Shown here: in pieces, positions 4,325-64,000 of the stretch
How positions within the stretch are numbered: the first letter of the stretch is position 1
Layout of the letters: every line of letters starts with the position of its first letter
Source of the DNA: Dehalococcoidia bacterium
GTDB taxonomy: Bacteria > Chloroflexota > Dehalococcoidia > Bin125
Length of the DNA stretch: 64,000 bases
Direction of reading: 5' to 3'
NCBI GenBank assembly: GCA_965261715.1
Contig: OZ253471.1
Location: forward strand, 560,763 to 624,762
The notes under the pieces: generated by a model
The model's input: only the letters and a program-made list of their open reading frames with translations
What the model was told of the DNA's origin: nothing
Database searches by the model: none
Program-made: the position numbers and the translations under genes

Positions 4325-5677
4325 ATGGCTGATCTCTTCCGACCGCGTTGGCGCGAGGGCAACGACCCATTCCGCCGGCTGGTCGTACAGACCACGCTGC
4401 GATTCATGGAGGTTGAGGCCGCCGGCGGCATCGTCCTGGTGTTTGCCGCCGTCGTGGCGATGATCTGGGCCAACGTCGACTTCCACGCCTACGAGTCCTT
4501 CTGGCACGCACACATCAAGCTCGACCTGGTGATCTGGTCATTCGACCAGTCGCTGCAGCACGTCGTCAACGACGTGCTAATGGTCGTCTTCTTCCTCGTC
4601 GTCGGCGCCGAGATCAAACGCGAGGTCACCCACGGCGAGTTGCGCAGTGTTCGCCAGGCGGCGTTGCCGATCATCGCCGCGCTCGGTGGCATGTTGGTAC
4701 CGGCCGGCCTCTACGCGATCCTCAACGCAGGCGGCGACGGCTCCTCGGGTTGGGGCATTCCTGTGGCGACAGACATCGCCTTCGCGCTGGGCGTCCTGGC
4801 GCTGGTTGGACGCGGCGTACCTGTTCAACTTAAGATTTTCCTGCTCACGCTCGCCGTCGCCGATGACGTCGGCGGCATTCTGATCATCGCCATCTTCTAC
4901 TCGGAGTCGATCAAGTTCGAGTGGCTGTTGGGCATGGTTGGAGCGGTGGCGTTCCTGCTCCTGCTGAAGCAGTTTGGATTCCGCCACTTCGGCATTCATG
5001 CGCTCGGCGGTGTGTTCCTCTGGTTGACGCTCTGGGAGGCCGGCGTCCACGCGACGCTGGCCGGCGTCATTCTTGGCCTGATCGTCCCCGCCGACGCCCT
5101 GTATAACACCAAAGGCACGGGTCGGCGCATCGACTATCTACTTCAGCGACTGAGATATGTGGAAGAGGACCCTGACCCAGTGGTGCGTGAGCGGGACGCC
5201 CAGGAAACGCTGAGTAACATCCGGCATGTATCCCATGAAGCGACGAGTCCGCTCGAGCGTCTTGAGGAGGGCATGGCGCCGATCTCCGCGTTCATCGTGG
5301 TGCCAATCTTCGCCCTGGCCAATGCGGGAATCCACATCACCGGAGATAGTATTGAGGCGGCGCTCAGCTCCAACATTGCCTGGGGCATATTCATCGGCCT
5401 CTTGCTTGGCAAGTTTGTCGGGATTCTGGGCGTCTCCGCGCTGGCAATCAAACTGGGCATCGCATTCAAGCCGGAGCAACTGCGCTGGTCGCATCTGGCG
5501 GGTGCGGCGCTGCTGGCGGGTATCGGATTCACCGTGGCCATCTTCATCGCCAATCTCAGTTTCGACGCAGAGCAGACCGAGCTGCTCGAGGCGGCCAAGA
5601 TCGGTATCTTCGCGGCGTCCATCGTGGCGGCGGTATTGGGCTTCTCGGTCCTGCGTGGAGTCAAGCCACGTTTTTGA
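4325..5677 (+). CDS. nhaA: Na+/H+ antiporter NhaA
   Basis: 450-aa polytopic membrane protein. The N-terminal 'GGIVLVFAAVVAMIWAN' region and the overall NhaA-family pattern (FFLVVGAEIKRE, AVADDVGGILIIAIFY) match. Confidence 0.85.
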   Translation: MADLFRPRWREGNDPFRRLVVQTTLRFMEVEAAGGIVLVFAAVVAMIWANVDFHAYESFWHAHIKLDLVIWSFDQSLQHVVNDVLMVVFFLVVGAEIKREVTHGELRSVRQAALPIIAALGGMLVPAGLYAILNAGGDGSSGWGIPVATDIAFALGVLALVGRGVPVQLKIFLLTLAVADDVGGILIIAIFYSESIKFEWLLGMVGAVAFLLLLKQFGFRHFGIHALGGVFLWLTLWEAGVHATLAGVILGLIVPADALYNTKGTGRRIDYLLQRLRYVEEDPDPVVRERDAQETLSNIRHVSHEATSPLERLEEGMAPISAFIVVPIFALANAGIHITGDSIEAALSSNIAWGIFIGLLLGKFVGILGVSALAIKLGIAFKPEQLRWSHLAGAALLAGIGFTVAIFIANLSFDAEQTELLEAAKIGIFAASIVAAVLGFSVLRGVKPRF

Positions 5678-5887
5678 CCCGCGCCCTGGCCAATCTGAAA
5701 CAGGCCCATTGATGAGGGAAGAAGAAACGACGCCCAGCGCCGAGAACACAGGCGCAGAGTAATATTGCGCTACACTTCCGACGGCTAACCGCCGTTCGCG
5801 TCTCTGTGCGCGACCGCGATCTGGCCCTGATCGATATCAACAAGAACGAGCGCCGAAGAGCGCTGGACCAAACAGGAGGCGGAATTC

Positions 5888-6754
5888 GTGCAAGCGGTGA
5901 AATATGCCCGCGCCGGCAGCGTGGAAGAGGCAGTTAGCCTCCTGCAAAACGGAGGCGAAACCGCACGTCCGTTGGCAGGCGGAACCGATGTCATCGTGCA
6001 GGCGCGCGAGCGCACGCGGGACATCAACCTGTTCGTCGACATCAAGCACATACCCGAGCTGATGAATATTGAGTACTCAGCCGATTCCGGTCTCACCATC
6101 GGCGCGGGGACTCCGTGTTACCAGCTCTACGGCGACTCCACCATTTCGGATCTTTATCCGGCGCTGGTCGACTCGGCCTCGCTAATTGGTGGCACGGCAA
6201 TTCAGGGCCGTGCTTCTCTGGGCGGCAACCTGTGTAACTCCTCACCGGCAGCCGACGGGATTCCGTCGCTGATCGTGCTCGAGGCTCAGGTGGAAATTGC
6301 CGGGCCAAACGGTCGGCGGACCGTCGCGGTTGAGGACTTCTGTACCGCTCCCGGCCGCAACGTGCTGGAGGCCGGCGAAATCGTCGTCAAGCTCCACTTC
6401 CCGGTACCGGCCGAGGGCTCGGGCGCGCGATTCCTGCGCTTCATTCCTCGCAACGAGATGGACATTGCCGTCGCCAACGCCGCGACGCAGGTTCGCTTCG
6501 ACGGTGACGGGACTGTGACCTGGGCCCGCGTCTCACTCGGCGCGATTGCACCGACGCCATTGCTGGTCTCCGAGGCCGCCGCCGCGCTGGTCGGTCAGCC
6601 GCTCAGCGATGAGACGATCGCGGCTGCTGCCGCGGCGTCGAGCGCTGCGGCCAAACCAATCACCGACATGCGCGGCAGCATTCGCCAGCGGGTCCATCTC
6701 GCCGGCGTGCTCACCGAGCGCACCATCCGACAGGCCGCCGAGCGCGCCGCCTGA
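5888..6754 (+). CDS. Molybdenum hydroxylase FAD-binding (medium, CoxM/XdhB-like) subunit
   Basis: 288 aa with the FAD-binding PCMH-type fold motif 'AGGTDVIV'. It sits first in an M-S-L gene order. GTG start preceded by AGGAGG. Confidence 0.85.
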   Translation: MQAVKYARAGSVEEAVSLLQNGGETARPLAGGTDVIVQARERTRDINLFVDIKHIPELMNIEYSADSGLTIGAGTPCYQLYGDSTISDLYPALVDSASLIGGTAIQGRASLGGNLCNSSPAADGIPSLIVLEAQVEIAGPNGRRTVAVEDFCTAPGRNVLEAGEIVVKLHFPVPAEGSGARFLRFIPRNEMDIAVANAATQVRFDGDGTVTWARVSLGAIAPTPLLVSEAAAALVGQPLSDETIAAAAAASSAAAKPITDMRGSIRQRVHLAGVLTERTIRQAAERAA

Positions 6755-13699: not shown

Positions 13700-14040
13700 T
13701 GCGTAAGTCCCCTTCTCCCCCCTTGCGGGGGAGATGCCGAAGGCAGAGGGGGGGACTCCCCATCTCAATGCCTGTCTGGTCGCTGGCCGAGCCCCCCCTC
13801 TCTGTCACTCCGTGACAACTCCCCCCGCAAGGAGACCTTTGAATAAGTCCCCTTCGCCCCCCTTGCGGGGGAGATGCCGAAGGCAGAGGGGGGGCTCCCC
13901 ATCTCAAGGCCTATCTGGTCGCTGGCGGCGGACCCCCCCTGTCACTCCGTGACATCTCCCCCCGCAAGGGGGGGAGAGGGGAATCATGAGTTTTTCGAAG
14001 GTCTCCGCAAGGGGGGAGAGGGGATAGGCGAGTTTTGCAA
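13700..14040. repeat. GC-rich palindromic tandem repeat (140-bp unit, about 2.4 copies)
   Basis: The unit 'ccccttgcgggggagatgccgaaggcagaggggggg(a/c)tccccatctcaa...gtcactccgtgaca(a/t)ctccccccgcaagg...' is seen directly. Exact 140-bp spacing (13721 vs 13861). Contains perfect hairpins with GCAA/TTGC loops. Lies between convergent gene ends. Confidence 0.8.
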
Positions 14041-14048
14041 AGGCCTCT

Positions 14049-15744: not shown

Positions 15745-16155
15745 CTAGGGAAGGGGACGGATCACGGACAGGAACCGTCGCCAGCTGCGCCGCGGCGATT
15801 CCCCACATCGTTGGAAGGTTGGAATCTGATCGAGCAGCGACGATAGCTTGACGTTCTCCAAACGGCCGATCTGTTTCTTCAGCCGAGTACGTTTGACCGT
15901 GATGATCTTGTCGATCATGAGCCAACTCAGCCTGTCGAGGCCGTTTTGTTGCGTCGGCTGAACCGGCTGGCGAAAGAGCGGAGCTTCTTGAGAGTCAGGA
16001 TTGCTCGTGAAGAGACAGACTGTCACCGACTCAAGAGCCGAAAAGTACTCATGTTGAAGCACGACGCCCGGTCGTCCTTTGGACGTGTAGTCGCCGCCGC
16101 CTTCTACGAACCAGATCTGACCGCAGGTCGCGGGATCCCTGGTCGATTGGTTCAT
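15745..16155 (-). CDS. PemK/MazF-family endoribonuclease toxin homolog
   Basis: ATG at 16155 gives 'MNQSTRDPATCGQIWFVEGGGDYTSKGRPGVVLQHEYFSALESVTVCLFTSNP...IDKIITVKRTRLKKQIGRL', which matches the MazF/Kid pattern (GxIwxVdf...K.RPxvVlq...TvvvxplTS...idqirTvdk.RL.k.iGxL). The ORF track's TTG start at 16167 is replaced by the in-frame ATG. Confidence 0.65.
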   Translation of the reverse strand: MNQSTRDPATCGQIWFVEGGGDYTSKGRPGVVLQHEYFSALESVTVCLFTSNPDSQEAPLFRQPVQPTQQNGLDRLSWLMIDKIITVKRTRLKKQIGRLENVKLSSLLDQIPTFQRCGESPRRSWRRFLSVIRPLP

Positions 16156-16416
16156 TAAGGCTGTCAACGAACGCTACATCCTCTGCCTCCTGCGGGCTAT
16201 GAGCGATCAGCATCGATTGGCGGCGGGCTTCCACGGCGAATGCGGGGTGAGCTGGGTCGGGCAATCTTGGATCGGCTACGCGGGACCGGCGGCTGAATAG
16301 ACGCGAGAACCGTTCGCGTCCACGCCGGAGGGACAGTATCGCGTTCGGGTAAACGGCCACTGGACTCTCCTTAACTGCCGATGCTTGTCGAACGTACGCC
16401 TGCACAAATGCCGATG

Positions 16417-16968
16417 TCAAGAAGTCCCATCGGTGTCCAGGCGCATCGGACGCTGCCAGAATCCGACATCCCAATAACGGTCGAACTTGCGACCGGCTTC
16501 CTTCCATACGCCTGTGAGCGCGTATCCGCGACTCTCGGTCAGGGCGACTGAGGCTTCGTTGGGCAGTGTGATCAGGGCGAACAATTGATGCAGTTCATCG
16601 ACCTTAAGCAGTTCGTCATACAGCGCACTCCAGAGCCTGGTTCCGAGGCCGCGGCCGACCACACCCGGCAACAGGTACACGCTGGTCGCGACGCTGCTGT
16701 TGTATGCGGCCTTGGGATAGAGCGGGCTGGAATAGGAGTGGCCGACGATGCGGCCGTCCGTCTCGACGGCGACCATGACACGATACGGCCCGGTATCGGA
16801 ATAGTTCGCGAACCACTGGCGCTTGGTCTCGACCGTGTGCGGCTCGGTGTCGAAGGTCGCCGGTGAGGTGAGAATGTAGTGGTTGTACAACTCGGCGAGT
16901 TGTTGCACGTCGGCGTCGACGGCTGAGCGGATCGTGAGAGCGTCGGTCATGGGAGCATCCGTGTGCAT
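16417..16968 (-). CDS. GNAT N-acetyltransferase (phosphinothricin acetyltransferase-like)
   Basis: 183 aa. 'IRSAVDADVQQLAELYNHYI...TFDTEP' and 'VGRGLGTRL' (acetyl-CoA binding Q/RxxGxG/A) are typical of the PAT/bar-type GNAT family. Confidence 0.8.
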   Translation of the reverse strand: MHTDAPMTDALTIRSAVDADVQQLAELYNHYILTSPATFDTEPHTVETKRQWFANYSDTGPYRVMVAVETDGRIVGHSYSSPLYPKAAYNSSVATSVYLLPGVVGRGLGTRLWSALYDELLKVDELHQLFALITLPNEASVALTESRGYALTGVWKEAGRKFDRYWDVGFWQRPMRLDTDGTS

Positions 16969-17034
16969 AGAAACGCGAAACGGCGGATCCGCAGATCCGC
17001 CGTCAGCGTAAGTGAACTGCGATTGGTCGACGAA

Positions 17035-17943
17035 TTACCCGCCGACGACGTTGCCGGCTTCGATCGCGGGTCGGAAGACGCGTTCCATTTCCTCGGCAGC
17101 GCGTTCGACCGTCCACATCTCGGTGCCGCTCAATTCGCGGATCAATTTGTACTGGCTGTAGAGTCCGATGTCGTAGCCCATCGCACGGATGACCTGGCCG
17201 TTAAGCCAGTCCGACTGATCGGAAGCCATGTAGGCGATCGGAACCGCGACGTTGGCCGGTGAGCGGCGCGGGTCGACGATGGCCTCAGAGTCTTCGTCGA
17301 AGCCGCGGCTGCGCCGCTCCTCGGGCACCGTGTCGGTCATCCGCGTCGATGCGCCTGGGCCGATCGCGTTCGAGGTCACGCCGTAGCGTCCGAGTGCGTT
17401 GGCGCAGCTATAGGTGAAGCCAACGATGCCGAGCTTGGCCGCGGCGTAGTTGGGCTGACCAGGAGCGCCGTGCAAGCCCGAGCCGGACGTGAAGTTAATC
17501 AGCCGGTAGTGGCCCTCGCGGTTCGCGCGCCAGTAGATCGAGGCGTACTTCGTCGTGTTGAAGGTGCCCTTCATATGCACCGCGACGACGGCGTCCCATT
17601 CCGCTTCGGTCATGTTGAAGACCATGCGGTCGCGCAGGTTGCCGGCGACGTTGACCAGGATGTCCAGCCGACCATACTCATCCAGCGCTTGTTGGATGAT
17701 GCCTTCGGCTGCGTCGTAGTCGGCGACCGAGTTGTAGTTGGCGACGGCGTCGCCGCCGGCGTCGCGGATCGCTGCGACGGTTTCGTCGGACGGGCCGGCC
17801 TCGCCGCCCGTGCCGTCAACCGCTCCGCCGAGGTCGTTGACGACGACCTGGGCCCCGTTGGCGGCAAGCAGTTTGGCGACTTCCGAACCGATCCCGCGAC
17901 CGGCGCCGGTCACGATTGCGACACGATTGTCAAGCAATGCCAT
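17035..17943 (-). CDS. SDR-family oxidoreductase (MFE-2 dehydrogenase-like), paralog 1
   Basis: 302 aa with TGAGRGIG Rossmann motif and YxxxK catalytic motif (YAAAK). Confidence 0.85.
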   Translation of the reverse strand: MALLDNRVAIVTGAGRGIGSEVAKLLAANGAQVVVNDLGGAVDGTGGEAGPSDETVAAIRDAGGDAVANYNSVADYDAAEGIIQQALDEYGRLDILVNVAGNLRDRMVFNMTEAEWDAVVAVHMKGTFNTTKYASIYWRANREGHYRLINFTSGSGLHGAPGQPNYAAAKLGIVGFTYSCANALGRYGVTSNAIGPGASTRMTDTVPEERRSRGFDEDSEAIVDPRRSPANVAVPIAYMASDQSDWLNGQVIRAMGYDIGLYSQYKLIRELSGTEMWTVERAAEEMERVFRPAIEAGNVVGG

Positions 17944-17980
17944 GATGTTGATTCCTTCCCATTGCTCCGAACAGAATCGA

Positions 17981-18889
17981 CTAACCGAAGAATCCGCCGC
18001 CGCCTGCGACGGCCGGCTTGAACAGTTCTTCCATCTGCTCGCCCGCGCCTTCGACGCTCCAGCGCTCGGTGCCGCGCACCTGGCGAATCACGGCGGGCTT
18101 GTTGAAGAGCTGCAGCTCGTACCCTGAAGCGCCGATGATCTGACCGTTGAGCCAGTCCGACTGCTCGGAGGCCATGTAGACCAGCGGCACCGCGACGTTC
18201 GCTGGTGAGCGCTCCGGGTCTTCCTCGGTCGAGTCGCCGATGTCGCTGCCCGCGCGCCGTCGATCCTCGGGAACGGTGTCGGTCATACGGGTCGAGGCGC
18301 CCGGCGAGATCGCATTAGCGGTCGCGCCGTAGCGCGGCAGCGCGTTGGCGCAGCTATAGGTGAAGCCGACGATGCCCATCTTGGCCGCCGCGTAGTTGGG
18401 CTGGCCGGGTGCGCCGAAGATGCCGGAGACCGACGAGAAGTTGATCAGTCGGTAGTGACCCTTGCGCTCGGAGCGCCAGTGGATCGAGGCGTACTTGGCC
18501 AGGTTGAAGTGACCCTTCATGTGCACATCGACAACGGCGTCCCATTCCGCCTCGGTCATGTTGAAGACCATGCGGTCGCGCAGGATACCCGCCGTGTTGA
18601 CAACGATGTCGAGGTCGCCGAAGTTGTCCAGCGCATCCTTGACGATGCTCTCGGCGGCGTTGTAGTCGGCGACCGAGGCGTAGTTGGCGACGGCTTCGCC
18701 GCCTGCGTCGCGGATGGCCGCAACCACTTCATCGGCGGGCGCCGCAGCGCCGCCGGAACCGTCAACGGCGCCACCGAGGTCGTTGACCACGATCTTCGCG
18801 CCTTGTGAAGCAAACAGCTTGGCCGTCTCGGCCCCAATTCCACGTCCGGCGCCGGTGACAATCGCCACTCGGCCGTCAAGCATCCCCAT
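17981..18889 (-). CDS. SDR-family oxidoreductase, paralog 2 (tandem duplicate)
   Basis: 302 aa that can be aligned end-to-end with 17035..17943, about 70% identical by eye. Same TGAGRGIG and YAAAK motifs. Confidence 0.85.
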   Translation of the reverse strand: MGMLDGRVAIVTGAGRGIGAETAKLFASQGAKIVVNDLGGAVDGSGGAAAPADEVVAAIRDAGGEAVANYASVADYNAAESIVKDALDNFGDLDIVVNTAGILRDRMVFNMTEAEWDAVVDVHMKGHFNLAKYASIHWRSERKGHYRLINFSSVSGIFGAPGQPNYAAAKMGIVGFTYSCANALPRYGATANAISPGASTRMTDTVPEDRRRAGSDIGDSTEEDPERSPANVAVPLVYMASEQSDWLNGQIIGASGYELQLFNKPAVIRQVRGTERWSVEGAGEQMEELFKPAVAGGGGFFG

Positions 18890-24527: not shown

Positions 24528-25562
24528 ATGGTCTCCGCGATTGAGAACCCGGGCCTCAACCTTGACTGGCTGAACCTCGAGACCGACGATGATTTCGATA
24601 TCCAGGTGGGACGCAAGGGCGTCACGCTGCAGTCGATCAACCAGCGCATGGCTGGCGTCGAAGGCGTTGACGAAGCGAACTGGCGCTCATTCGCGCCTCG
24701 CGGCATCGAGGCCGACCCGCGCTCCAACGCGCACGCGCGGCAGTACCGCGACAAAGGCGATGTCTGGTCCGAGTCGGCGATGCTGCTCTACGAAGAGGCG
24801 CTGCAGCGCCAGTGGTCGTCGGCCCGTGACATTCCCTGGGACACGATCGGCGACCAGCCCGACGACATCGAAAAGGCAATGTGCACCCTGTGTACGTTCC
24901 TGACTCAGGTCGAATTCATCGCCGGCGACGTCCCCGGTCGGTTCCTTGAGTCTGTGCACCCCGACTTCTTCGAGTCGCAGCTCTTCCTCGGCACCCAGTT
25001 GATGGACGAAGCCCGACACCTCGACGTCTTCCGCAAGCGCGTACTGGTCAACGGCGGCGGCATGTCGCCGGCCGGACTCGGCGCAGTCGGCCTGCTCGCG
25101 ATCGACGACTTCACCGAGATGACCACAATCCTCCACCTCTTCGCGGAGGGTCTGGTCCAGTCACTGTTCCGCATGGGTGAGCTGATTGGTCAGAACGAAG
25201 CCGAGAAGCGCATGTTCCGACTCTCCGCGCAGGACGAGTCGCGGCACCTCGCCTTTGGCGTCACGCACACCAAGTACACCGTCGAGACGCAGCCCTGGCG
25301 CAAGGAAGAACTGCACCACTACCTCGACATCAACGAGGTTGTGCAGAACACGCAGGCCGGCCTGACCACCAACCCGATCACGGGCGAGGCCCTGGCCGTG
25401 CTCGCCGGCGGTGGCATCGAGCACCTGGACGAGGGTTACAACCTCGTCATGCTGATGCGCAAGAAGCAGATCAACGAGTACTACCACCGCCTACAGGTGG
25501 TCGGCCTCGGTGACCGCCTCCACCGGATGTCGCCCGACATGCGGGCGCTGATCACCGTATAG
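24528..25562 (+). CDS. AurF-like ferritin-fold diiron oxygenase
   Basis: 344 aa containing two E...DExRH diiron motifs: 'LTQVEF...LMDEARHLDVF' and 'LFAEGLVQ...AQDESRHLAFG'. Confidence 0.7.
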   Translation: MVSAIENPGLNLDWLNLETDDDFDIQVGRKGVTLQSINQRMAGVEGVDEANWRSFAPRGIEADPRSNAHARQYRDKGDVWSESAMLLYEEALQRQWSSARDIPWDTIGDQPDDIEKAMCTLCTFLTQVEFIAGDVPGRFLESVHPDFFESQLFLGTQLMDEARHLDVFRKRVLVNGGGMSPAGLGAVGLLAIDDFTEMTTILHLFAEGLVQSLFRMGELIGQNEAEKRMFRLSAQDESRHLAFGVTHTKYTVETQPWRKEELHHYLDINEVVQNTQAGLTTNPITGEALAVLAGGGIEHLDEGYNLVMLMRKKQINEYYHRLQVVGLGDRLHRMSPDMRALITV

Positions 25563-25565
25563 CCC

Positions 25566-25661
25566 CGAACAAGCGCAGATTTGTCGGAACGTTGCCGAAC
25601 ATGTTCTGCTGAAAACCGAACAAAACCGAACAAAACCGAACAGAATCGAACGAATCTGAAC
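25566..25661 (+). repeat. Phased 10-bp direct-repeat array, (C)CGAACA unit, 8-9 copies
   Basis: 'cgaac' occurs at 25566, 25586 (ggaac), 25596, 25617, 25627, 25637, 25647 and 25657 (tgaac), a strict 10-bp period. The stretch is A/C-rich and G-poor and lies 41-136 nt upstream of the ATG at 25702. Confidence 0.7.
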
Positions 25662-25701: not shown

Positions 25702-26976
25702 ATGCCGCCTCTCTCTCCTGCCCAGAACATGCGCGCCCAGGTCCGCGGTTGGCCCGCCGAGCTGATCAAGCGGGTCGAGAACTCGAGCACCTCGGGACGC
25801 CAGATCGACAACATCCTCAACATCTCGATCGAACCGGATCGGGTCAGCAAGTGGCTTGAGTTCATCGAGAACAATCCTGAGCACCCGTTAGCGGGAGCGC
25901 AGTTCATCATGTTCGAGGACGGTGGCGAGACAGGACTCAAGCCAACGGCGTCCGAAGACGGCATGCGCCTCAGCGACGTCGACATCGGCTCCTACGGCCA
26001 CGTGCCGGATGTCTGGAAGTTCCGCAACGATCTGCCACGTGGCACTCGTCCGGTTCCCGGCATGTACATGCCCGCGGGATACGCGATTTACGACCGAGCC
26101 GAAGTCTGGGCCGAAGGCGTCTCCGACCTGTACGAAGACGCGATCCGCGACCGCTGGATTCCCGCGACTGACCTCGATTGGGATAACCGCGAAGAACTAG
26201 CGCCAGAGGTCGAACGCGCCACCGGTCAGATCTGCGCGGTCTATTCCACCTATGGCATCGCCGAGCAGAAAGTGATCTCAAAGTGGCTGGAGGAGATCTC
26301 CTACGGCTTCCACGAGGTCAAGCTGTTCCTGGCGACGCAGGTCTACGATGCCGGCCGCAAGGTCGAGGCATTGCGCAAGCGCGCGCTGCACGGCTCCGGG
26401 ATCATCGGCAAAGCGCCGCTCTCGGATGTCTCCGAAGCCTGGTACAACGCCCTGACCTTCACCGACATGATTATCGCGCTTGACGTGGTCTACAAGTCCT
26501 ACGAGTTGACCGCCTTCGAATGCGCGACCGACTGGGCTCGCTCCGACTTCGACCGCGACCTCTTCGCCCGACTCGCCGAGGACAGCAAGCGTCACCTCGA
26601 CTACGGCCTCAAGCACCTCCAGTGGTACAACCGCTACGCCGAACGAGCCGAGATGGAACTGCCGATTTTCTTTATCAAGGCTGAAGGCGGTCTCGCCTCC
26701 GAGATGGCGCAGTCGCCGCTCGAGCGCGAAGCGCTGGCCGTGCTCTACGCGGACGGCGTGGAGCGGCTCGACGCCGGCGTCGAGGGCTTGCGCAAGCTGC
26801 GCGAGAAGCAGTACCAGGATTACCTGCATCGCCTACACGAGCACGGCTTCAACCGGATCGGCGAGGTCGCGGGCATTCTTGGTCTGGCGACCCAGGACCC
26901 GCTGCTCAAGGCGCTGACTCCAGAAGCGCTGACCGAAGGCGCGGCCGCCGGTACCACGGCCACGGATCGCGACTAG
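25702..26976 (+). CDS. AurF-like diiron protein paralog with a degenerate first metal motif
   Basis: 424 aa that align with 24528..25562. The second motif is intact (LAEDSKRHLDYG) but the first is replaced (VYDAGRKVEAL, no His). Confidence 0.6.
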   Translation: MPPLSPAQNMRAQVRGWPAELIKRVENSSTSGRQIDNILNISIEPDRVSKWLEFIENNPEHPLAGAQFIMFEDGGETGLKPTASEDGMRLSDVDIGSYGHVPDVWKFRNDLPRGTRPVPGMYMPAGYAIYDRAEVWAEGVSDLYEDAIRDRWIPATDLDWDNREELAPEVERATGQICAVYSTYGIAEQKVISKWLEEISYGFHEVKLFLATQVYDAGRKVEALRKRALHGSGIIGKAPLSDVSEAWYNALTFTDMIIALDVVYKSYELTAFECATDWARSDFDRDLFARLAEDSKRHLDYGLKHLQWYNRYAERAEMELPIFFIKAEGGLASEMAQSPLEREALAVLYADGVERLDAGVEGLRKLREKQYQDYLHRLHEHGFNRIGEVAGILGLATQDPLLKALTPEALTEGAAAGTTATDRD

Positions 26977-33289: not shown

Positions 33290-34565
33290 ACCTCAGCTGG
33301 CGCCTTACGCCGACTCGCCCTGTCGCCCGTTGAGTGGGATTCGGGTGCTTGACTTGACGACTGCGGTGGCTGGACCGGTTGCCGCCTTGTTGTTGGGGGC
33401 GCTCGGAGCGGAAGTGCTGCGGATTGAGACTCCCTGGGCCCGACCTCCGCACCCGGCCTCGGCATTGCCGCACCGCGGCGATGGTCCCGATGAGCCCTGG
33501 AATCGTGAAGCGCGGCTGAACGAACTGGCCAACAGTAAGCGGTCGGTAGCGCTCAACTTGACCACTCCGGCCGGGCGCGAGGTCTTCCTGGATCTGGTCG
33601 AACACTCCGACGTTGTGCTAGAAAACTACTCGCCGCGGGTGATGGGCAACTTCGGACTCGAGTGGGACACGCTGAGCGCGCGCAATCCCCAGATCATCTA
33701 CGTGGCAATGCCGGCGTTCGGCAAGTCGGGTCCCTGGCGCGACCGCATCTCCTATGGACCGGGCATCGATGCGATGAGTGGACTGTCCTGGCTGACCGGC
33801 TATGCCGATGGCTCGCCGCTCAAGCCGGGCAACTTCTACTGCGACCAGAACGCCGGCCTGCATGCGGCGCTGTCGACGGTCGCTGCGATTCTGGCACGCT
33901 GCCGTGTCGGTGGACAGACCGTCGAATTGGCGATGCTTGAAGGCGAGCTGCAGCTCATCGGCGAGGCGATGGTGGGCCAGCAACTGTCAGGCCGGGAGCC
34001 GACGCGGATTGGCAATGAACACACCTCGGCAGCGCCGCATGGCGTCTATCCGGCGAAGCCAGTGCTCGATGATCCCGACTCATGGATTGCGATTGCCTGT
34101 CGCGACGACGCCGAGTGGGAGGCGCTGCTCAGCGTTTGGCAGGATCAAGCAGTGTCTTGCGACCTACGGTTCGCGACCGGACTTCGGCGTTGGCGACATC
34201 GAAGCGACCTCGATGCGCTGCTTCGCGAGTGGACGATGTTGTTCAATCCGATGGAATTGGCCAGTCGATTGCAGGACGCCGGTGCTCCTGCGTCGCCGGT
34301 GATGGGCGCCAGGACGCTGTTGCGTGACGAGCAGGTGCTGGCGCGACAATCGGTCGGTGGGCTGGCTCATCCGCAGGTTGGACTGTCGCCGGCGCCGCAG
34401 GCGGCCTATCGGATGTCCGAGACTCCGGCGCCGCCCAAGAACGCCGCGCCGCTGTTTGCGGTCGATACGGTCCCCGTGTTGCAGCAAATCTTGGGATACT
34501 CCGAAGAGCGGATCGCTGAACTGATCGAATCAGGTGCAGTCAGCGACCGATTGCGGCCCCGCTAA
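33279..34565 (+). CDS. Family III CoA-transferase (CaiB/BaiF-type), second copy
   Basis: 'GIRVLDLTTAVAGPVAALLLGALGAEV' aligns with the upstream paralog. Start placed at GTG 33279 (or 33258), overlapping the upstream stop. The ORF track's 5' extension is rejected. Confidence 0.8.
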   Translation: MLPEPQLAPYADSPCRPLSGIRVLDLTTAVAGPVAALLLGALGAEVLRIETPWARPPHPASALPHRGDGPDEPWNREARLNELANSKRSVALNLTTPAGREVFLDLVEHSDVVLENYSPRVMGNFGLEWDTLSARNPQIIYVAMPAFGKSGPWRDRISYGPGIDAMSGLSWLTGYADGSPLKPGNFYCDQNAGLHAALSTVAAILARCRVGGQTVELAMLEGELQLIGEAMVGQQLSGREPTRIGNEHTSAAPHGVYPAKPVLDDPDSWIAIACRDDAEWEALLSVWQDQAVSCDLRFATGLRRWRHRSDLDALLREWTMLFNPMELASRLQDAGAPASPVMGARTLLRDEQVLARQSVGGLAHPQVGLSPAPQAAYRMSETPAPPKNAAPLFAVDTVPVLQQILGYSEERIAELIESGAVSDRLRPR

Positions 34566-34587
34566 CCGACAAGAGAGGGAGGTGTTG

Positions 34588-34986
34588 ATGCCAATTCGAA
34601 AACCTTGGATTCAGCCGAGCGAAGAGTCGATTCGTGCGATTCCCGCCGTCCTCGGCGTCTATGAGATCGCCGACGCCGAGGGCAACTTGATCTACATCGG
34701 ACAGGCCGGAGGTCGCGAGCCGTTCGGTCTGCGCACCAGGATGGCGCTGCACTTCGGCGGCGACGATCCGAATCTAGTGTTGCGAGAGCGAGCGGCGCAA
34801 TTTCGCTGGGAGTCGAACCAGCAATACACGTCGAAGCGACTCGAGATGCTGATGCAGTTCCAGCGCGACGAAGGCGTTGAATGGCCGCCGGCGCATCCGG
34901 CGGGGGACTGGCGCGATACGCCGCAGCTCGGTCGGCTGCGTCGCTCACAGCCCCTCCGGCAATCGAGCGAGCAATCGAGCGAGTAA
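34588..34986 (+). CDS. Small GIY-YIG-domain protein
   Basis: 'VLGVYEIADAEGNLIYIGQAGG...RTRMALH...RWE' fits the GIY-x(9-11)-YIG ... R ... H ... E pattern of GIY-YIG nucleases. About 132 aa from ATG 34588. Confidence 0.5.
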   Translation: MPIRKPWIQPSEESIRAIPAVLGVYEIADAEGNLIYIGQAGGREPFGLRTRMALHFGGDDPNLVLRERAAQFRWESNQQYTSKRLEMLMQFQRDEGVEWPPAHPAGDWRDTPQLGRLRRSQPLRQSSEQSSE

Positions 34987-35030
34987 TCGAGCGGGCAATT
35001 GAGTGGGCATTTTAGTGGGAAGTGGAGGAT
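34960..35030 (+). repeat. Decaying 12-bp tandem repeat (caatcgagcgag x about 5)
   Basis: Seen directly: 'caatcgagcgag caatcgagcgag taatcgagcggg caattgagtggg cattttagtggg aagtggagga', ending in the acd ribosome-binding site. Confidence 0.5.
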
Positions 35031-45529: not shown

Positions 45530-45956
45530 ACGACAGAGACAGTTCCTCGCTCCCCCTGCATGGAGACCTTTGCGTAACTCCTCTTCTCCGCTCTCGCGGA
45601 GACTTGCGCGTAAATCCCCTTCTCCCCCCTTGCGAAGACCTTTGAAAACTCCCCTTTGCCCCCCTTGCGGGGGAGATGCCGTAGGCAGAGGGGGGGCTCC
45701 CCATCCCCTGGCCTATCTAGTCGCTGTGCGCGGACCCCCCCTCTGTCACTCCGTGACATCTCCCCCCGCAAGGGGGGGAGAGGGGATTCGGGAGTTTTGC
45801 AAAGGTCTCCTTGCAGGGGAGATGCCGTAGGCAGAGGGGGGGCTCCCCATCCCCTGGCCTATCTAGTCGCTGTGCGCGGACCCCCCCTCTGTCACTCCGT
45901 GACATCTCCCCCCGCAAGGGGGGGAGAGGGGATTCGGGAGTCTTGCAAGGGTCTCC
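45530..45956. repeat. GC-rich palindromic tandem repeat (about 157-bp unit, about 2.5 copies)
   Basis: 'gagatgccgtaggcagagggggggctccccatcccctggcctatctagtcgctgtgcgcggaccccccctctgtcactccgtgacatctccccccgcaagggggggagaggggattcgggag' is repeated with a 157-bp period (45662 vs 45819). Same family as 13700..14040. Confidence 0.8.
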
Positions 45957-60839: not shown

Positions 60840-60929
60840 TGGCGGAGGGTGAGGGATTCGAACCCTCGACGGAGTTTCCCCCGAACCCGCTTAGCAGGCG
60901 GGCGCACTAGGCCACTATGCGAACCCTCC
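60840..60929 (-). tRNA. tRNA-Ser (anticodon GCT)
   Basis: Reverse complement folds as a cloverleaf: GGAGGGT acceptor, GG in the D-loop, anticodon stem CCCGC/GCGGG with loop CTGCTAA (GCT), long variable arm, GGTTCGAATCC T-arm, encoded CCA. 90 nt. Confidence 0.85.
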
Positions 60930-62498: not shown

Positions 62499-63419
62499 CT
62501 ACTCCGCTGCGCCTGGAGGTTGGTACTTGTCCGCCTCTTCGAGAACGCGGCGCATCGTCGAGCCGATCTCTGCGGGGCTGCGTGAGATCACCGCTCCGGC
62601 TGCTTCGAGCGCGGCGAGCTTTGCTTCGGCGGTGCCGGCCTCGCCCTCGATGATGGCGCCGGCGTGTCCCATCCGCCGTCCTGGAGGCGCAGTCGCGCCC
62701 GCGATGAATGCGACGACCGGCTTGGTCATACTGCGCTTGATGTACGCGGCCGCGGCCTGTTCGGCCAGTCCGCCGATCTCACCGATCAGCACGACGGCGT
62801 CGGTGTCGGGGTCGTTCTGGAATCGGCGCAGGATGGCCTGTTGTTGTTCACCGATGATCGGGTCGCCGCCAACCCCAACGCAGGTCGACTGGCCGATGCC
62901 CGCGCGGGTCAACTGATCGACCGCCTCGTAGACCAGCGTGCCGGAGCGCGAGACGACGCCGACGTTGCCGGACATGAAGACATCGGGTGGGTGAATCCCC
63001 ACGCGGCACTTCGACGCCGGCTGAATGATCCCCGGGCAGTTGGGGCCGATCAGTTTGCTCTTGGAGCCGGCCAGCGCGGTGCGCACGCGGATCATGTCGT
63101 GGACCGGCACGCCCTCGGTGATGCAGACGATCAGCGGCACCTCAGCAGCGATGTTCTCGAGGATCGCGTCGGCCGCGCCGGGGGCGGGCACGTAGATGAT
63201 CGAGCAGTTGGCCTGCGTCTTCTCAACTGCTTCAGTGACCGTGGCATAGACCGGGAAGATGTGATTGGCGTGGGCGAAGTTTTCGCCACCGCGGAATCCC
63301 GGATGCACGCCCACGACCACCTTCGTGCCGTAGTCGAGAGAGCGTCGAATTTGGTTCTGACCCTCGTTACCGAGGCCCTGGATCATCAGTCGGGTGCGGT
63401 TGTTGAGAAGAATGCTCAT
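62499..63419 (-). CDS. sucD: Succinyl-CoA synthetase alpha subunit
   Basis: '[12 protein letters not shown]' N-terminus, the CoA-binding motif, and the phospho-His loop 'GHAGA'. Confidence 0.9.
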
Positions 63420-63431
63420 GCGCCGGTTCCT

Positions 63432-63490
63432 CGTTCGGGAGTGTTCGGTCTTGTTCGGGTTTGTTCGGATTTGTTCGATGCTGTTCGAAC
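63432..63490 (-). repeat. Phased 10-bp direct-repeat array, (C)CGAACA unit in sucD sense, 6 copies
   Basis: 'gttcg' occurs at 63432, 63442, 63452, 63462, 63472 and 63482 (exact 10-bp period). In sucD sense this reads ...UCGAACAGCA UCGAACAAAU CCGAACAAAC CCGAACAAGA CCGAACACUC CCGAACGAGG AACCGGCGC AUG. Confidence 0.7.
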
Positions 63491-63508
63491 CCAGCTACGA
63501 ACCGTTTG

Positions 63509-64000
63509 CTAGTTGTTGGACCGTGTTCGGCGCTTGCCGGACTTGGCCGCCTCGACCGCGAGCTCGGCCGCGTCACCAAGTTCGTCCGACGTCTGAATGT
63601 CGATGCCGGAATCGTGCAGCACTCGGCGGCCTTCCTCGACGTTGGAGCCGTTCAGCCGCACGACCAGCGGCTGCCGGATGTCGAGCTCCGTGACCGCGTC
63701 AACGACGCCCTCGGCAACGATATCCACGCGCGCGAGTCCGCCGAAGATGTTGATGAAGATCACCTTCACGTCGGGGTCGTTGACGATGATCCGCAAGGCT
63801 TCGATCACGCGGTCTTTGCGGTTGACCGTGCCGATGTCGAGGAAGTTGGCCGGCTCGCCGCCGTACAGCTTGAGCGTGTCCATCGTGGCCATGGCCAGGC
63901 CGGCGCCGTTGACGACGCAGCCGATGTTGCCGTCGAGCTTGATGTAGGAACCGATGTTGGCCTCTTCGGCCTCAATCTCGGTCGGATTCTCCTGAGAGCG
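63509..64000 (-). CDS. sucC: Succinyl-CoA synthetase beta subunit (partial; 5' part lies beyond the window)
   Basis: C-terminal part of SucC ('...[14 protein letters not shown]...'). It reads from the window edge down to the stop at about 63509. Confidence 0.85.

Follow-up and report, generated by a model that had tools for sequence, protein, structure and literature searches.

Phased CGAAC decamers ahead of sucD in a Dehalococcoidia bacterium: a labile, sense-oriented array with a possible role at the RNA level

Introduction

What is a run of six phased decamers doing between sucC and sucD, the genes for the two subunits of the Krebs-cycle enzyme succinyl-CoA ligase, in a Dehalococcoidia bacterium? 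The run was noticed in a first-pass annotation of a 64,000-nt stretch of DNA (hereafter the window), together with a second run of the same kind in a distant intergenic gap. From their position between co-oriented genes, either an RNA-level role or an internal promoter had been proposed. Here we describe the anatomy of both arrays, the family to which they belong and its turnover among relatives, and weigh what the sucC-sucD array may do. L-numbers are the labels of the loci from relatives and from other contigs that were compared; all features are collected in Table 1.

Results

Anatomy of the two arrays

In the sense of sucD, the array reads TTCGAACAGCA TCGAACAAAT CCGAACAAAC CCGAACAAGA CCGAACACTC CCGAACGAGGAACCGGCGC-ATG, and the order of elements across the junction is TAG, CAAACGGTTCGTAGCTGGGT, TCGAACAGCA TCGAACAAAT CCGAACAAAC CCGAACAAGA CCGAACACTC CCGAAC, GAGGA, ACCGGCGC and ATG. 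The first-pass annotation had transcribed this sequence correctly, and its description of six cores exactly 10 bp apart, followed by the ribosome-binding site (RBS) and the AUG, was confirmed. Its positions, 63432-63482, were 1 bp low, since the gttcg copies of the + strand start at 63433, 63443, 63453, 63463, 63473 and 63483. The array does occupy the sucC-sucD gap but does not fill it as had been stated, because it takes up 55-60 of the 89 nt and is preceded by 21 nt. Antisense copies of GTTCG are present in this 21-nt flank, which together with the first unit makes up GTTCGAAC. At the other end, the sucD ATG follows the last repeat after only 13 nt, taken up by the Shine-Dalgarno sequence (SD) and its spacer.

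The core bases are identical at 30/30 positions of the sucD array, and four of the five remaining unit positions are variable. No AUG, GUG or UUG start codon and no stop codon occurs in any sense frame of the six units, because U is nearly absent from them; the same near-absence explains how arrays can occupy an open reading frame (ORF).

The second array lies in the sense of its downstream ORF, 55 nt past the stop codon of a 344-aa ORF. It ends 40 nt 5′ of the ATG at 25702, placing it ∼25-40 nt from the SD/ATG. Isolated CCGAACA copies and a palindrome just past the upstream stop codon are possibly the seed material of this array, and one relative (L254) keeps tagcccccGAACAGGTTCgg at the position matching 25565..25606. 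As first described, the two arrays are of the same kind and both follow the sense of the downstream gene despite lying on opposite DNA strands.

The two ORFs of the second junction had been called an AurF pair, a label that we drop: neither the 344-aa nor the 424-aa ORF matches a Pfam family at E ≤ 0.001, and relatives are named ‘ferritin-like domain-containing protein’ in public sources. The pair is situated directly 3′ of a conserved CopC / PD40 / CopC-CopD-cytochrome c cluster (∼17-30 kb, in comparison with L250-L256), with an alpha/beta hydrolase and a Na+/H+ exchanger downstream. This setting suggests a copper-linked function rather than an AurF-type N-oxygenase.

Table 1. Features of the window and of compared loci (positions refer to the window unless a locus label is given)
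Feature	Position	Strand	Remarks
sucC, succinyl-CoA ligase beta subunit	63509..64000	-	3′ part; leaves window end
sucC stop codon TAG	63509-63511	-	
5′ flank of sucC-sucD array	63488..63508	-	21 nt, CAAACGGTTCGTAGCTGGGTT
sucC-sucD array	63433..63487	-	six CGAAC cores, exact 10-nt pitch
Array units, sense	63433..63487	-	TTCGAACAGC, ATCGAACAAA, TCCGAACAAA, CCCGAACAAG, ACCGAACACT, CCCGAACGAG
sucD Shine-Dalgarno GAGGA	63428..63432	-	adjoins last repeat directly; 8 nt 5′ of ATG
sucD ATG	63417-63419	-	
sucD, succinyl-CoA ligase alpha subunit	62499..63419	-	downstream cistron; CoA_binding, Succ_CoA_lig, Ligase_CoA
Upstream ORF of second junction	24528..25562	+	344 aa; no Pfam match
Isolated CCGAACA copies	25565-25571 and 25595-25601	+	just past upstream stop codon
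Palindrome GAACATGTTC	25597-25606	+	just past upstream stop codon
Second array	25617..25661	+	same family; CGAAC x4 + CTGAAC, 10-nt pitch
Downstream ORF of second junction	25702..26976	+	424 aa; relatives named ferritin-like
Third tandem array	34958-35019	+	unit GGCAATCGAGCG, 12 bp, ∼5 copies decaying toward 3′ end
tRNA-Ser (GCT)	60840-60929	-	sole Rfam/ARAGORN RNA gene in window
G/C-rich hairpin mosaic repeats	13940-14047 and 45540-45956		e.g. CTCCCCCCGCAAGGGGGGGAG with GCAA loop
Sense arrays between co-oriented genes	L047; L097		glyoxalase pair; tatC-UDG
Two successive sense arrays	L098		between SDR, SDR and enoyl-CoA hydratase
Arrays upstream of same-strand gene	L091; L106; L058		recG at L058
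Arrays in divergent gaps	L011/L021; L030		nearer same-sense gene: glyoxalase; S9 peptidase
Arrays downstream of same-strand gene	L031; L101		
Arrays inside ORF, sense	L041; L045; L072		P/E/Q-rich part of HTH_23 protein
HTH_23 ORFs	L041 3345-4286; L045 ∼5457-6314; L072 ∼5626-6536		

A family with a fixed core and variable spacers

An autocorrelation scan of the whole 64 kb at lags 5 to 15 gave a lag-10 signal at the two arrays only, and TRF assigned a period of 10 to both. The pattern CGAAC-N5-CGAAC-N5-CGAAC has six matches in the window, all within the two arrays, compared with 0.00 in 100 dinucleotide-preserving shuffles, which bears out the earlier judgement that a chance origin is unlikely.

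When one genome per species was scanned, at least 120 loci contained four phased CGAAC cores. Among the matches listed, those outside Chloroflexota were mostly tandem repeats without variation between units, or CGAAC pentamers, and 16 loci in Chloroflexota/Dehalococcoidia metagenome-assembled genomes (MAGs) carried the type seen in the window, with a fixed core and spacers that differ from unit to unit. Several of these 16 loci have a second array nearby, and the same core occurs at unrelated loci in several genomes. MAGs that share the array type include bins named SB066x_bin and RHO1/RHO2_bin; the array-bearing lineage is seemingly host-associated, the link to sponges being read from these bin names alone.

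The consensus of 109 units is R-N-Y-C-G-A-A-C-R-V (R 81%, N, Y 93%, C 99%, G 96%, A 98%, A 98%, C 100%, R 91%, V), with three spacer positions nearly free. T makes up 5% of these units against a background of 18-19%, A+C 74%, C 36% and G 21%. The CGAAC core was imposed by the search at loci found by pattern, but the Y and R flanks and the avoidance of T were not, and the pattern played no part in finding the two window arrays or the sucD orthologues. Across 235 kb of protein-anchored sequence, a sample unbiased by the CGAAC pattern, same-strand CGAAC pairs number 15, 8 and 10 at distances of 10, 20 and 30 bp and at most 6 at every other distance, with no pairs at 9 or 11 bp and no peak among inverted pairs.

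A search of the literature by motif words and of Rfam retrieved no description of such arrays; CGAACA has been reported as an unassigned methylated motif in hot-spring MAGs. A pattern scan of JGI metagenomes returned, among the matches listed, mostly generic near-perfect tandem repeats from unrelated environments. In viral contigs, control scans for four-copy decamer arrays found at least 120 with GCAAC, 63 with CAGAC and at least 120 with CGAAC. Since arrays with other cores of the same base composition are also common there, CGAAC arrays are not globally special. The generic phenomenon is ordinary; what is new is the combination, within one lineage, of a fixed core, variable spacers, strict sense-strand placement and an A/C-rich, U-poor composition.

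Strand rule and gene context

At the ∼12 independent loci that were informative once divergent gaps had been set aside, the array lies on the sense strand in every case (∼12/12) and never antisense; random orientation would give this with a probability of 2^-12. The sense orientation first noted at the two window arrays thus extends to every further locus of related genomes at which it could be judged. The proposal that both arrays sit inside operons fits the window, where the flanking ORFs are co-oriented with no predicted terminator between them, but it is not a rule of the family. Arrays also occur upstream of, downstream of and within same-strand genes as well as in divergent gaps (Table 1). 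Their distances to the start codon range from 13 nt to >300 nt, with some arrays 100-400 nt upstream of genes and 3 of the ∼15 family loci at ≤40 nt, and the downstream genes have mutually unrelated functions.

The arrays within coding sequence fall in the P/E/Q/N-rich C-terminal part of an HTH_23 (homeodomain-like) protein of ∼290-315 aa. Its homologues in three genomes adjoin metG, an aldehyde:ferredoxin oxidoreductase gene and a 2-hydroxyacid dehydrogenase gene, which suggests that the HTH_23 gene is mobile or dispersed.

Three loci carry additional phased decamers, CTGACCAAAA / TGTCCAAAAT, in three copies downstream of the CGAAC arrays of their long divergent gaps (L011, reverse complement 6090-6172; L021, 6463-6735; L030, 2790-2815). 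L011 and L021 also share a recurring motif, AAACACTGG(A/G)GATC, which is seen in L047 too. Together, the further decamers and this motif suggest composite intergenic modules. Neither the CTGACCAAAA/TGTCCAAAAT decamers nor AAACACTGG(A/G)GATC was found in the window. We rejected the idea that the window arrays are part of a larger mobile element, as the modules of L011, L021 and L030 (CTGACCAAAA decamers, AAACACTGGAGATC) are absent from the window.

Turnover among relatives

The closest SucD relatives in ENA, NCBI and Logan assemblies reach 93% identity, a 3.53-Mb ENA contig encodes an identical SucD, and the named, more distant matches belong to Dehalococcoidia, Tepidiforma and Chloroflexi. A relative of the ferritin-like ORF with 91% identity is encoded on OZ241982.1 (‘MAG: Dehalococcoidia bacterium’ chromosome). 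All relatives with a SucD identity of at least ∼89% (L001-L005) carry the sucC-sucD array, as does L051, for which SucD identity was not computed; copy number is 4-6. The junction of repeat and SD, CGAACGAGGAACCGGCGCATG, is also present in L001-L005, and the 21-nt flank is absent from L003-L005, where the sucC stop codon adjoins the array.

Copy number is polymorphic. Within one metagenome, contigs with an identical SucD have 5 or 6 units. Whole units have been gained or lost between L001-L005 and the window, and L001 has two units swapped relative to the window. At 86% SucD identity (L126) a single CGAAC copy is found at the junction, and at 75-79% (L127-L129) there is none. The array-free gaps of L127, L128 and L129 are 30-80 nt long, purine-rich (G 39-50%) and T-poor. 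Because these gaps are U-poor too, a long U-poor sucC-sucD spacer characterises the clade with or without the array.

At the second junction, relatives at 91% protein identity (L250/L251) have a G/C-rich, REP-like hairpin element in place of the array, those at 85% and 71% (L252/L256) have neither array nor hairpin, and the one at 79% (L254) has a relative of the array with a 20-bp period plus inverted copies. Conservation at orthologous junctions, which had been suggested as a check, is therefore split: at sucC-sucD the array persists in close relatives and is missing from more distant ones, and at the second junction it is already absent at 91% identity, having been lost or never gained. This mixed outcome marks the arrays as evolutionarily labile, with rapid gain and loss, rather than as conserved regulatory sites of those two junctions. 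One or two seed copies would thus give rise to an array, which slippage enlarges and which soon disappears again. A constant core next to spacers that differ within one array is, however, not predicted by plain slippage plus neutral decay.

Among the same relatives, L252/L253 carry five head-to-tail PaREP1-family genes of ∼142 aa each (15955-18107) and L250 carries one copy.

Signals and predicted RNA properties

A scan for sigma-70-like promoter hexamers, other promoter types lying outside its scope, found none in either gap, and no intrinsic terminator was predicted in either. The internal promoter proposed earlier is thus not borne out at sucD, where only the SD and its spacer lie between the array and the start codon. 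The only Rfam match in the window at gathering score is a tRNA, and relaxing the threshold to E ≤ 10 adds nothing but noise at the arrays.

On their respective strands, no 60-nt segment of the 64 kb is richer in A+C than the two arrays, which have 45 and 47 A+C of 60 compared with a mean of ∼30 (sd 4); A/C-richness is not a general property of intergenic DNA in the window. The predicted unpaired probability of the arrays is 0.62 and 0.60, compared with 0.39 and 0.40 for inserts of genome composition, and 0/200 and 3/200 random inserts reached the native value. The minimum free energy fold leaves the array largely unpaired. Composition and predicted single-strandedness fit an RNA-level role better than a promoter, which supports the RNA-level part of the earlier proposal.

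Several candidates were rejected. A stable RNA structure is not supported by fold z-scores of -0.46 and +0.87, which make the arrays no more stable than shuffles. Unmasking of the RBS by the array has no effect in silico: predicted accessibility of the sucD RBS is 0.43 with the array and 0.44 ± 0.09 with random inserts. Phased A-tract bending fails because most spacers of the family contain G or C and are not A-tracts. Complementarity to the tRNA T-loop, or an origin from tRNA, amounts to a GTTCGAA resemblance with no supporting stem or context.

Other repeats in the window and in compared loci

The third tandem array of the window overlaps with its first units the 3′ end of the ORF at 34534-34986, and ends at GGAGGA and the ATG (∼35036) of the next co-oriented ORF. 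As this 12-bp array also adjoins an RBS, tandem repeats at the RBS of a distal cistron recur with another unit length and composition. Among the G/C-rich hairpin mosaic repeats are two copies of a 146-bp unit, 97% identical to each other, and units of 36-42 bp; these repeats look like REP/BIME-type extragenic elements. Hairpins of the same type are found in the ferritin-pair gap of L250/L251 and in intergenic DNA of L011, L021, L030, L041 and L072.

Decamer arrays of AACGAACCNN with 5-11 copies and variable spacers are present in L036, L052, L055, L076, L093, L094 (Ferrovibrio MAGs) and L063. The genes that follow them are on the same strand, and most of these arrays sit in divergent gaps. They show the same architecture in Alphaproteobacteria; in this class, the LexA box repeats GAAC directly with a period of 11 bp. 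Phage-like contigs (L330, L355, L358, L367, L370 and others) and metagenome contigs (L133, L135, L164) contain (CGAACGCAAN)4 arrays, often two ∼225 bp apart and followed by short repeats of the GATAAA, GATACA or GAGAAG type. The phage-like arrays look like iterons or other protein-binding arrays.

Discussion

A possible single-stranded platform ahead of sucD

We tentatively read the sucC-sucD array as an RNA-level, slippage-generated, A/C-rich single-stranded landing (standby) platform ahead of the distal cistron. Replication slippage would lengthen or shorten arrays of this lineage-specific decamer family by 10 bp at a time. We infer that the array is transcribed within the sucCD mRNA, in which it would place ∼57 nt of A/C-rich, U-poor RNA directly 5′ of the sucD SD. 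This RNA is predicted barely to base-pair and its units offer no start or stop codon, and 30S subunits may load on it and reach the sucD RBS from there. If this loading affects expression, copy number would be an evolvable dial of sucD translation relative to sucC.

Sense-strand placement, an A/C-rich composition, predicted single-strandedness, fusion to the SD and the lack of a predicted promoter or terminator speak for this reading. Five as opposed to six units beside an identical SucD is the behaviour expected of a tuning repeat. Unstructured CA-rich 5′ tails are known to raise translation through ribosome standby in a length-dependent manner (PMC5934652). Standby sites and CA-rich enhancers (MS2 coat, tisB, synthetic CA tails; PMC5934652) likewise consist of tens of nucleotides of A/C-rich single strand 5′ of the RBS, and as their effect depends on length, so the length of the array varies between strains. 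Unlike the array, these systems have no repeated sequence-specific core. Classical standby also rescues a structured RBS, whereas the sucD RBS is not predicted to be sequestered, and many members of the array family are far from any RBS.

Several observations weigh against the platform. Its presence does not improve the modelled accessibility of the sucD RBS. With only 3 of ∼15 loci close to a start codon, standby cannot be the function of the whole family. Furthermore, a spacer that is merely unstructured needs no invariant CGAAC core, conserved G or Y/R flanks, and any benefit must be small, given array-free relatives at 75-79% SucD identity and an array-free second junction at 91%. We hold the platform at a probability of only about 0.3, as it leaves both the invariant core and the members far from an RBS unexplained. 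An invariant core, G included, at an exact 10-nt pitch implies some sequence-specific reader.

A possibly neutral repeat

The arrays may instead be nearly neutral variable-number tandem repeats (VNTRs), a reading that we find doubtful but take seriously. An A/C-rich seed beside a stop codon or RBS would expand by slippage, and arrays would survive only at harmless sites and in the harmless (sense) orientation, in which the units bring in neither start or stop codons nor structure. The turnover described above agrees with this reading: one CGAAC copy in L126 and none in L127-L129, quite different inserts at the second junction among relatives (a REP-like hairpin, nothing, or the relative with a 20-bp period), and whole units gained or lost between strains. 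Consistent with this, arrays are tolerated within a coding region, stand before functionally unrelated genes and have counterparts with other cores in large collections, and the third array of the window, with its 12-bp unit, adjoins an SD as well. What neutrality does not account for is the contrast within the unit. Slippage copies whole units, so neutral decay should strike core and spacer alike; instead, the core is 96-100% conserved and its Y and R flanks 93% and 91%, while three spacer positions are nearly free. At sucD, all 30 core bases agree and four of the five other positions vary, and the same core recurs at unrelated loci of several genomes.

Mycobacterial MIRUs are units of 40-100 bp that carry short ORFs overlapping the stop and start codons on either side. 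VNTRs of the MIRU type resemble the array in being intercistronic, sense-oriented and polymorphic in copy number between strains. The array differs in its 10-nt unit, which is not a multiple of 3, in having no ORF and in its architecture of core and spacer.

Candidate half-sites for a DNA-binding protein

It is unlikely, though arguable, that the array acts as DNA, with half-sites arranged head-to-tail on one helix face for a winged-helix protein (LexA-like or of the OmpR/PhoB type) that would serve as a roadblock or an upstream activator. Dehalococcoides LexA recognises a Gram-positive-type box. The exact 10-bp pitch, with no 9- or 11-bp spacings in the 235 kb, and a conserved 5-7-bp core with variable spacers are the properties of such an array. 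YCGAACR is the half-site of the Gram-positive LexA box, CGAACN4GTTCG; the identity includes the purine after CGAAC (R 91%). Alphaproteobacterial LexA binds GAAC direct repeats, GAACN7GAAC, and a cyanobacterial LexA orthologue also binds direct repeats (PMC3091678, PMC4234289), so the alphaproteobacterial box shares the direct-repeat arrangement with the array. In addition, many arrays of the family lie 100-400 bp upstream of genes, some in divergent gaps, comparable arrays in Ferrovibrio are placed likewise, and some phage contigs have CGAAC decamer arrays with variable spacers.

The spacing, however, is wrong for either LexA box, being N6 between direct GAAC cores (10-bp period) rather than N4 inverted or N7 direct, and the arrays have 3-6 copies instead of 2 and do not precede SOS genes. 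The LexA palindrome GAACNNNNGTTC (GAAC-N4-GTTC) is absent from the window and occurs twice in 427 kb of related loci, neither time at an array; no same-strand CGAAC pair has the 11-bp distance of GAAC-N7-GAAC in the 235 kb. Canonical LexA (SOS/Cheo) palindromes were rejected as an explanation because the arrays are direct repeats without them. Neither lexA nor recA was found among the related loci searched. OmpR and PhoB sites (ompF F1-F3, tor and pho boxes; in part PMC4832192, PMC4173790) resemble the array in their head-to-tail 5-7-bp core and spacer with a period of 10-11 bp, and can reach up to six contiguous half-sites over 60 bp, as the array does. These sites lie at or upstream of the promoter -35 and define a regulon, whereas the array has no predicted promoter, is found with diverse genes and turns over fast. 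There is neither room nor signal for a promoter between array and sucD, the sense rule holds even inside an ORF and 3′ of genes, T is strongly avoided at non-core positions, the downstream genes form no regulon, and sites are lost between close relatives; all of these argue against a DNA-level reader.

Less probable readings

Improbable, in our estimate, is a Rho loading (rut) site, at which Rho would terminate transcription when the downstream cistron is untranslated. A rut site is expected to be G-poor, unstructured RNA of ∼60-80 nt. The Rho primary site has a footprint of 57 ± 2 nt, with YC dimers joined by linkers of 9-13 nt, and %AAC, %ACA and %CA are among the descriptors reported to differentiate classes of Rho termination (PMC6144790). 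Like rut sites (PMC6144790), the array is richer in C (36%) than in G (21%), unstructured as predicted (0.62 compared with 0.39 for random inserts) and periodic in YC; with Y at -1 in 93% and C at 0 in 99%, each unit supplies one YC, and the six units with six YC, set roughly a Rho subunit apart, span ∼52-57 nt. A site of this kind could be functional in 5′ leaders, between cistrons and 3′ of genes alike, in line with the observed spread. Against this, the YC linker is 8 nt, a borderline failure that leaves the pitch slightly too short, Rho requires no GAAC, rut sites have no conserved repeated motif, and most arrays have only 3-4 units. Attenuating sucD relative to sucC would make no stoichiometric sense for a heteromeric enzyme, and no rho gene was found among the related loci searched.

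In Ferrovibrio and another alphaproteobacterium, same-strand genes are preceded by variable-spacer arrays of AACGAACC units, so a wider class is conceivable. Sense-strand decamer arrays of the GAAC half-site would then be a cross-phylum class of cis-element, read by a multimeric protein every 10 nt and setting, in each strain, the expression of downstream or operon-internal genes through a copy number governed by slippage. We regard this as a long shot; on DNA the reader may be a winged-helix filament resembling LexA, and on nascent RNA a ring-shaped or multidomain protein such as Rho. What probability these readings and the platform leave goes to another reader.

Implications

If the arrays are neutral, they would be useful as high-resolution VNTR strain markers for putative symbionts, and would caution that a periodic motif can look conserved and yet arise with no function specific to its locus. 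Because the core equals the LexA half-site of the phylum, a non-canonical binding mode of this global regulator, or a decoy for it, is possible. If the arrays do affect expression, the relative output of cistrons within operons could be adjusted by a simple, heritable element that mutates rapidly, i.e. a bacterial tuning-knob repeat that acts after transcription initiation in an uncultured, seemingly host-associated lineage.
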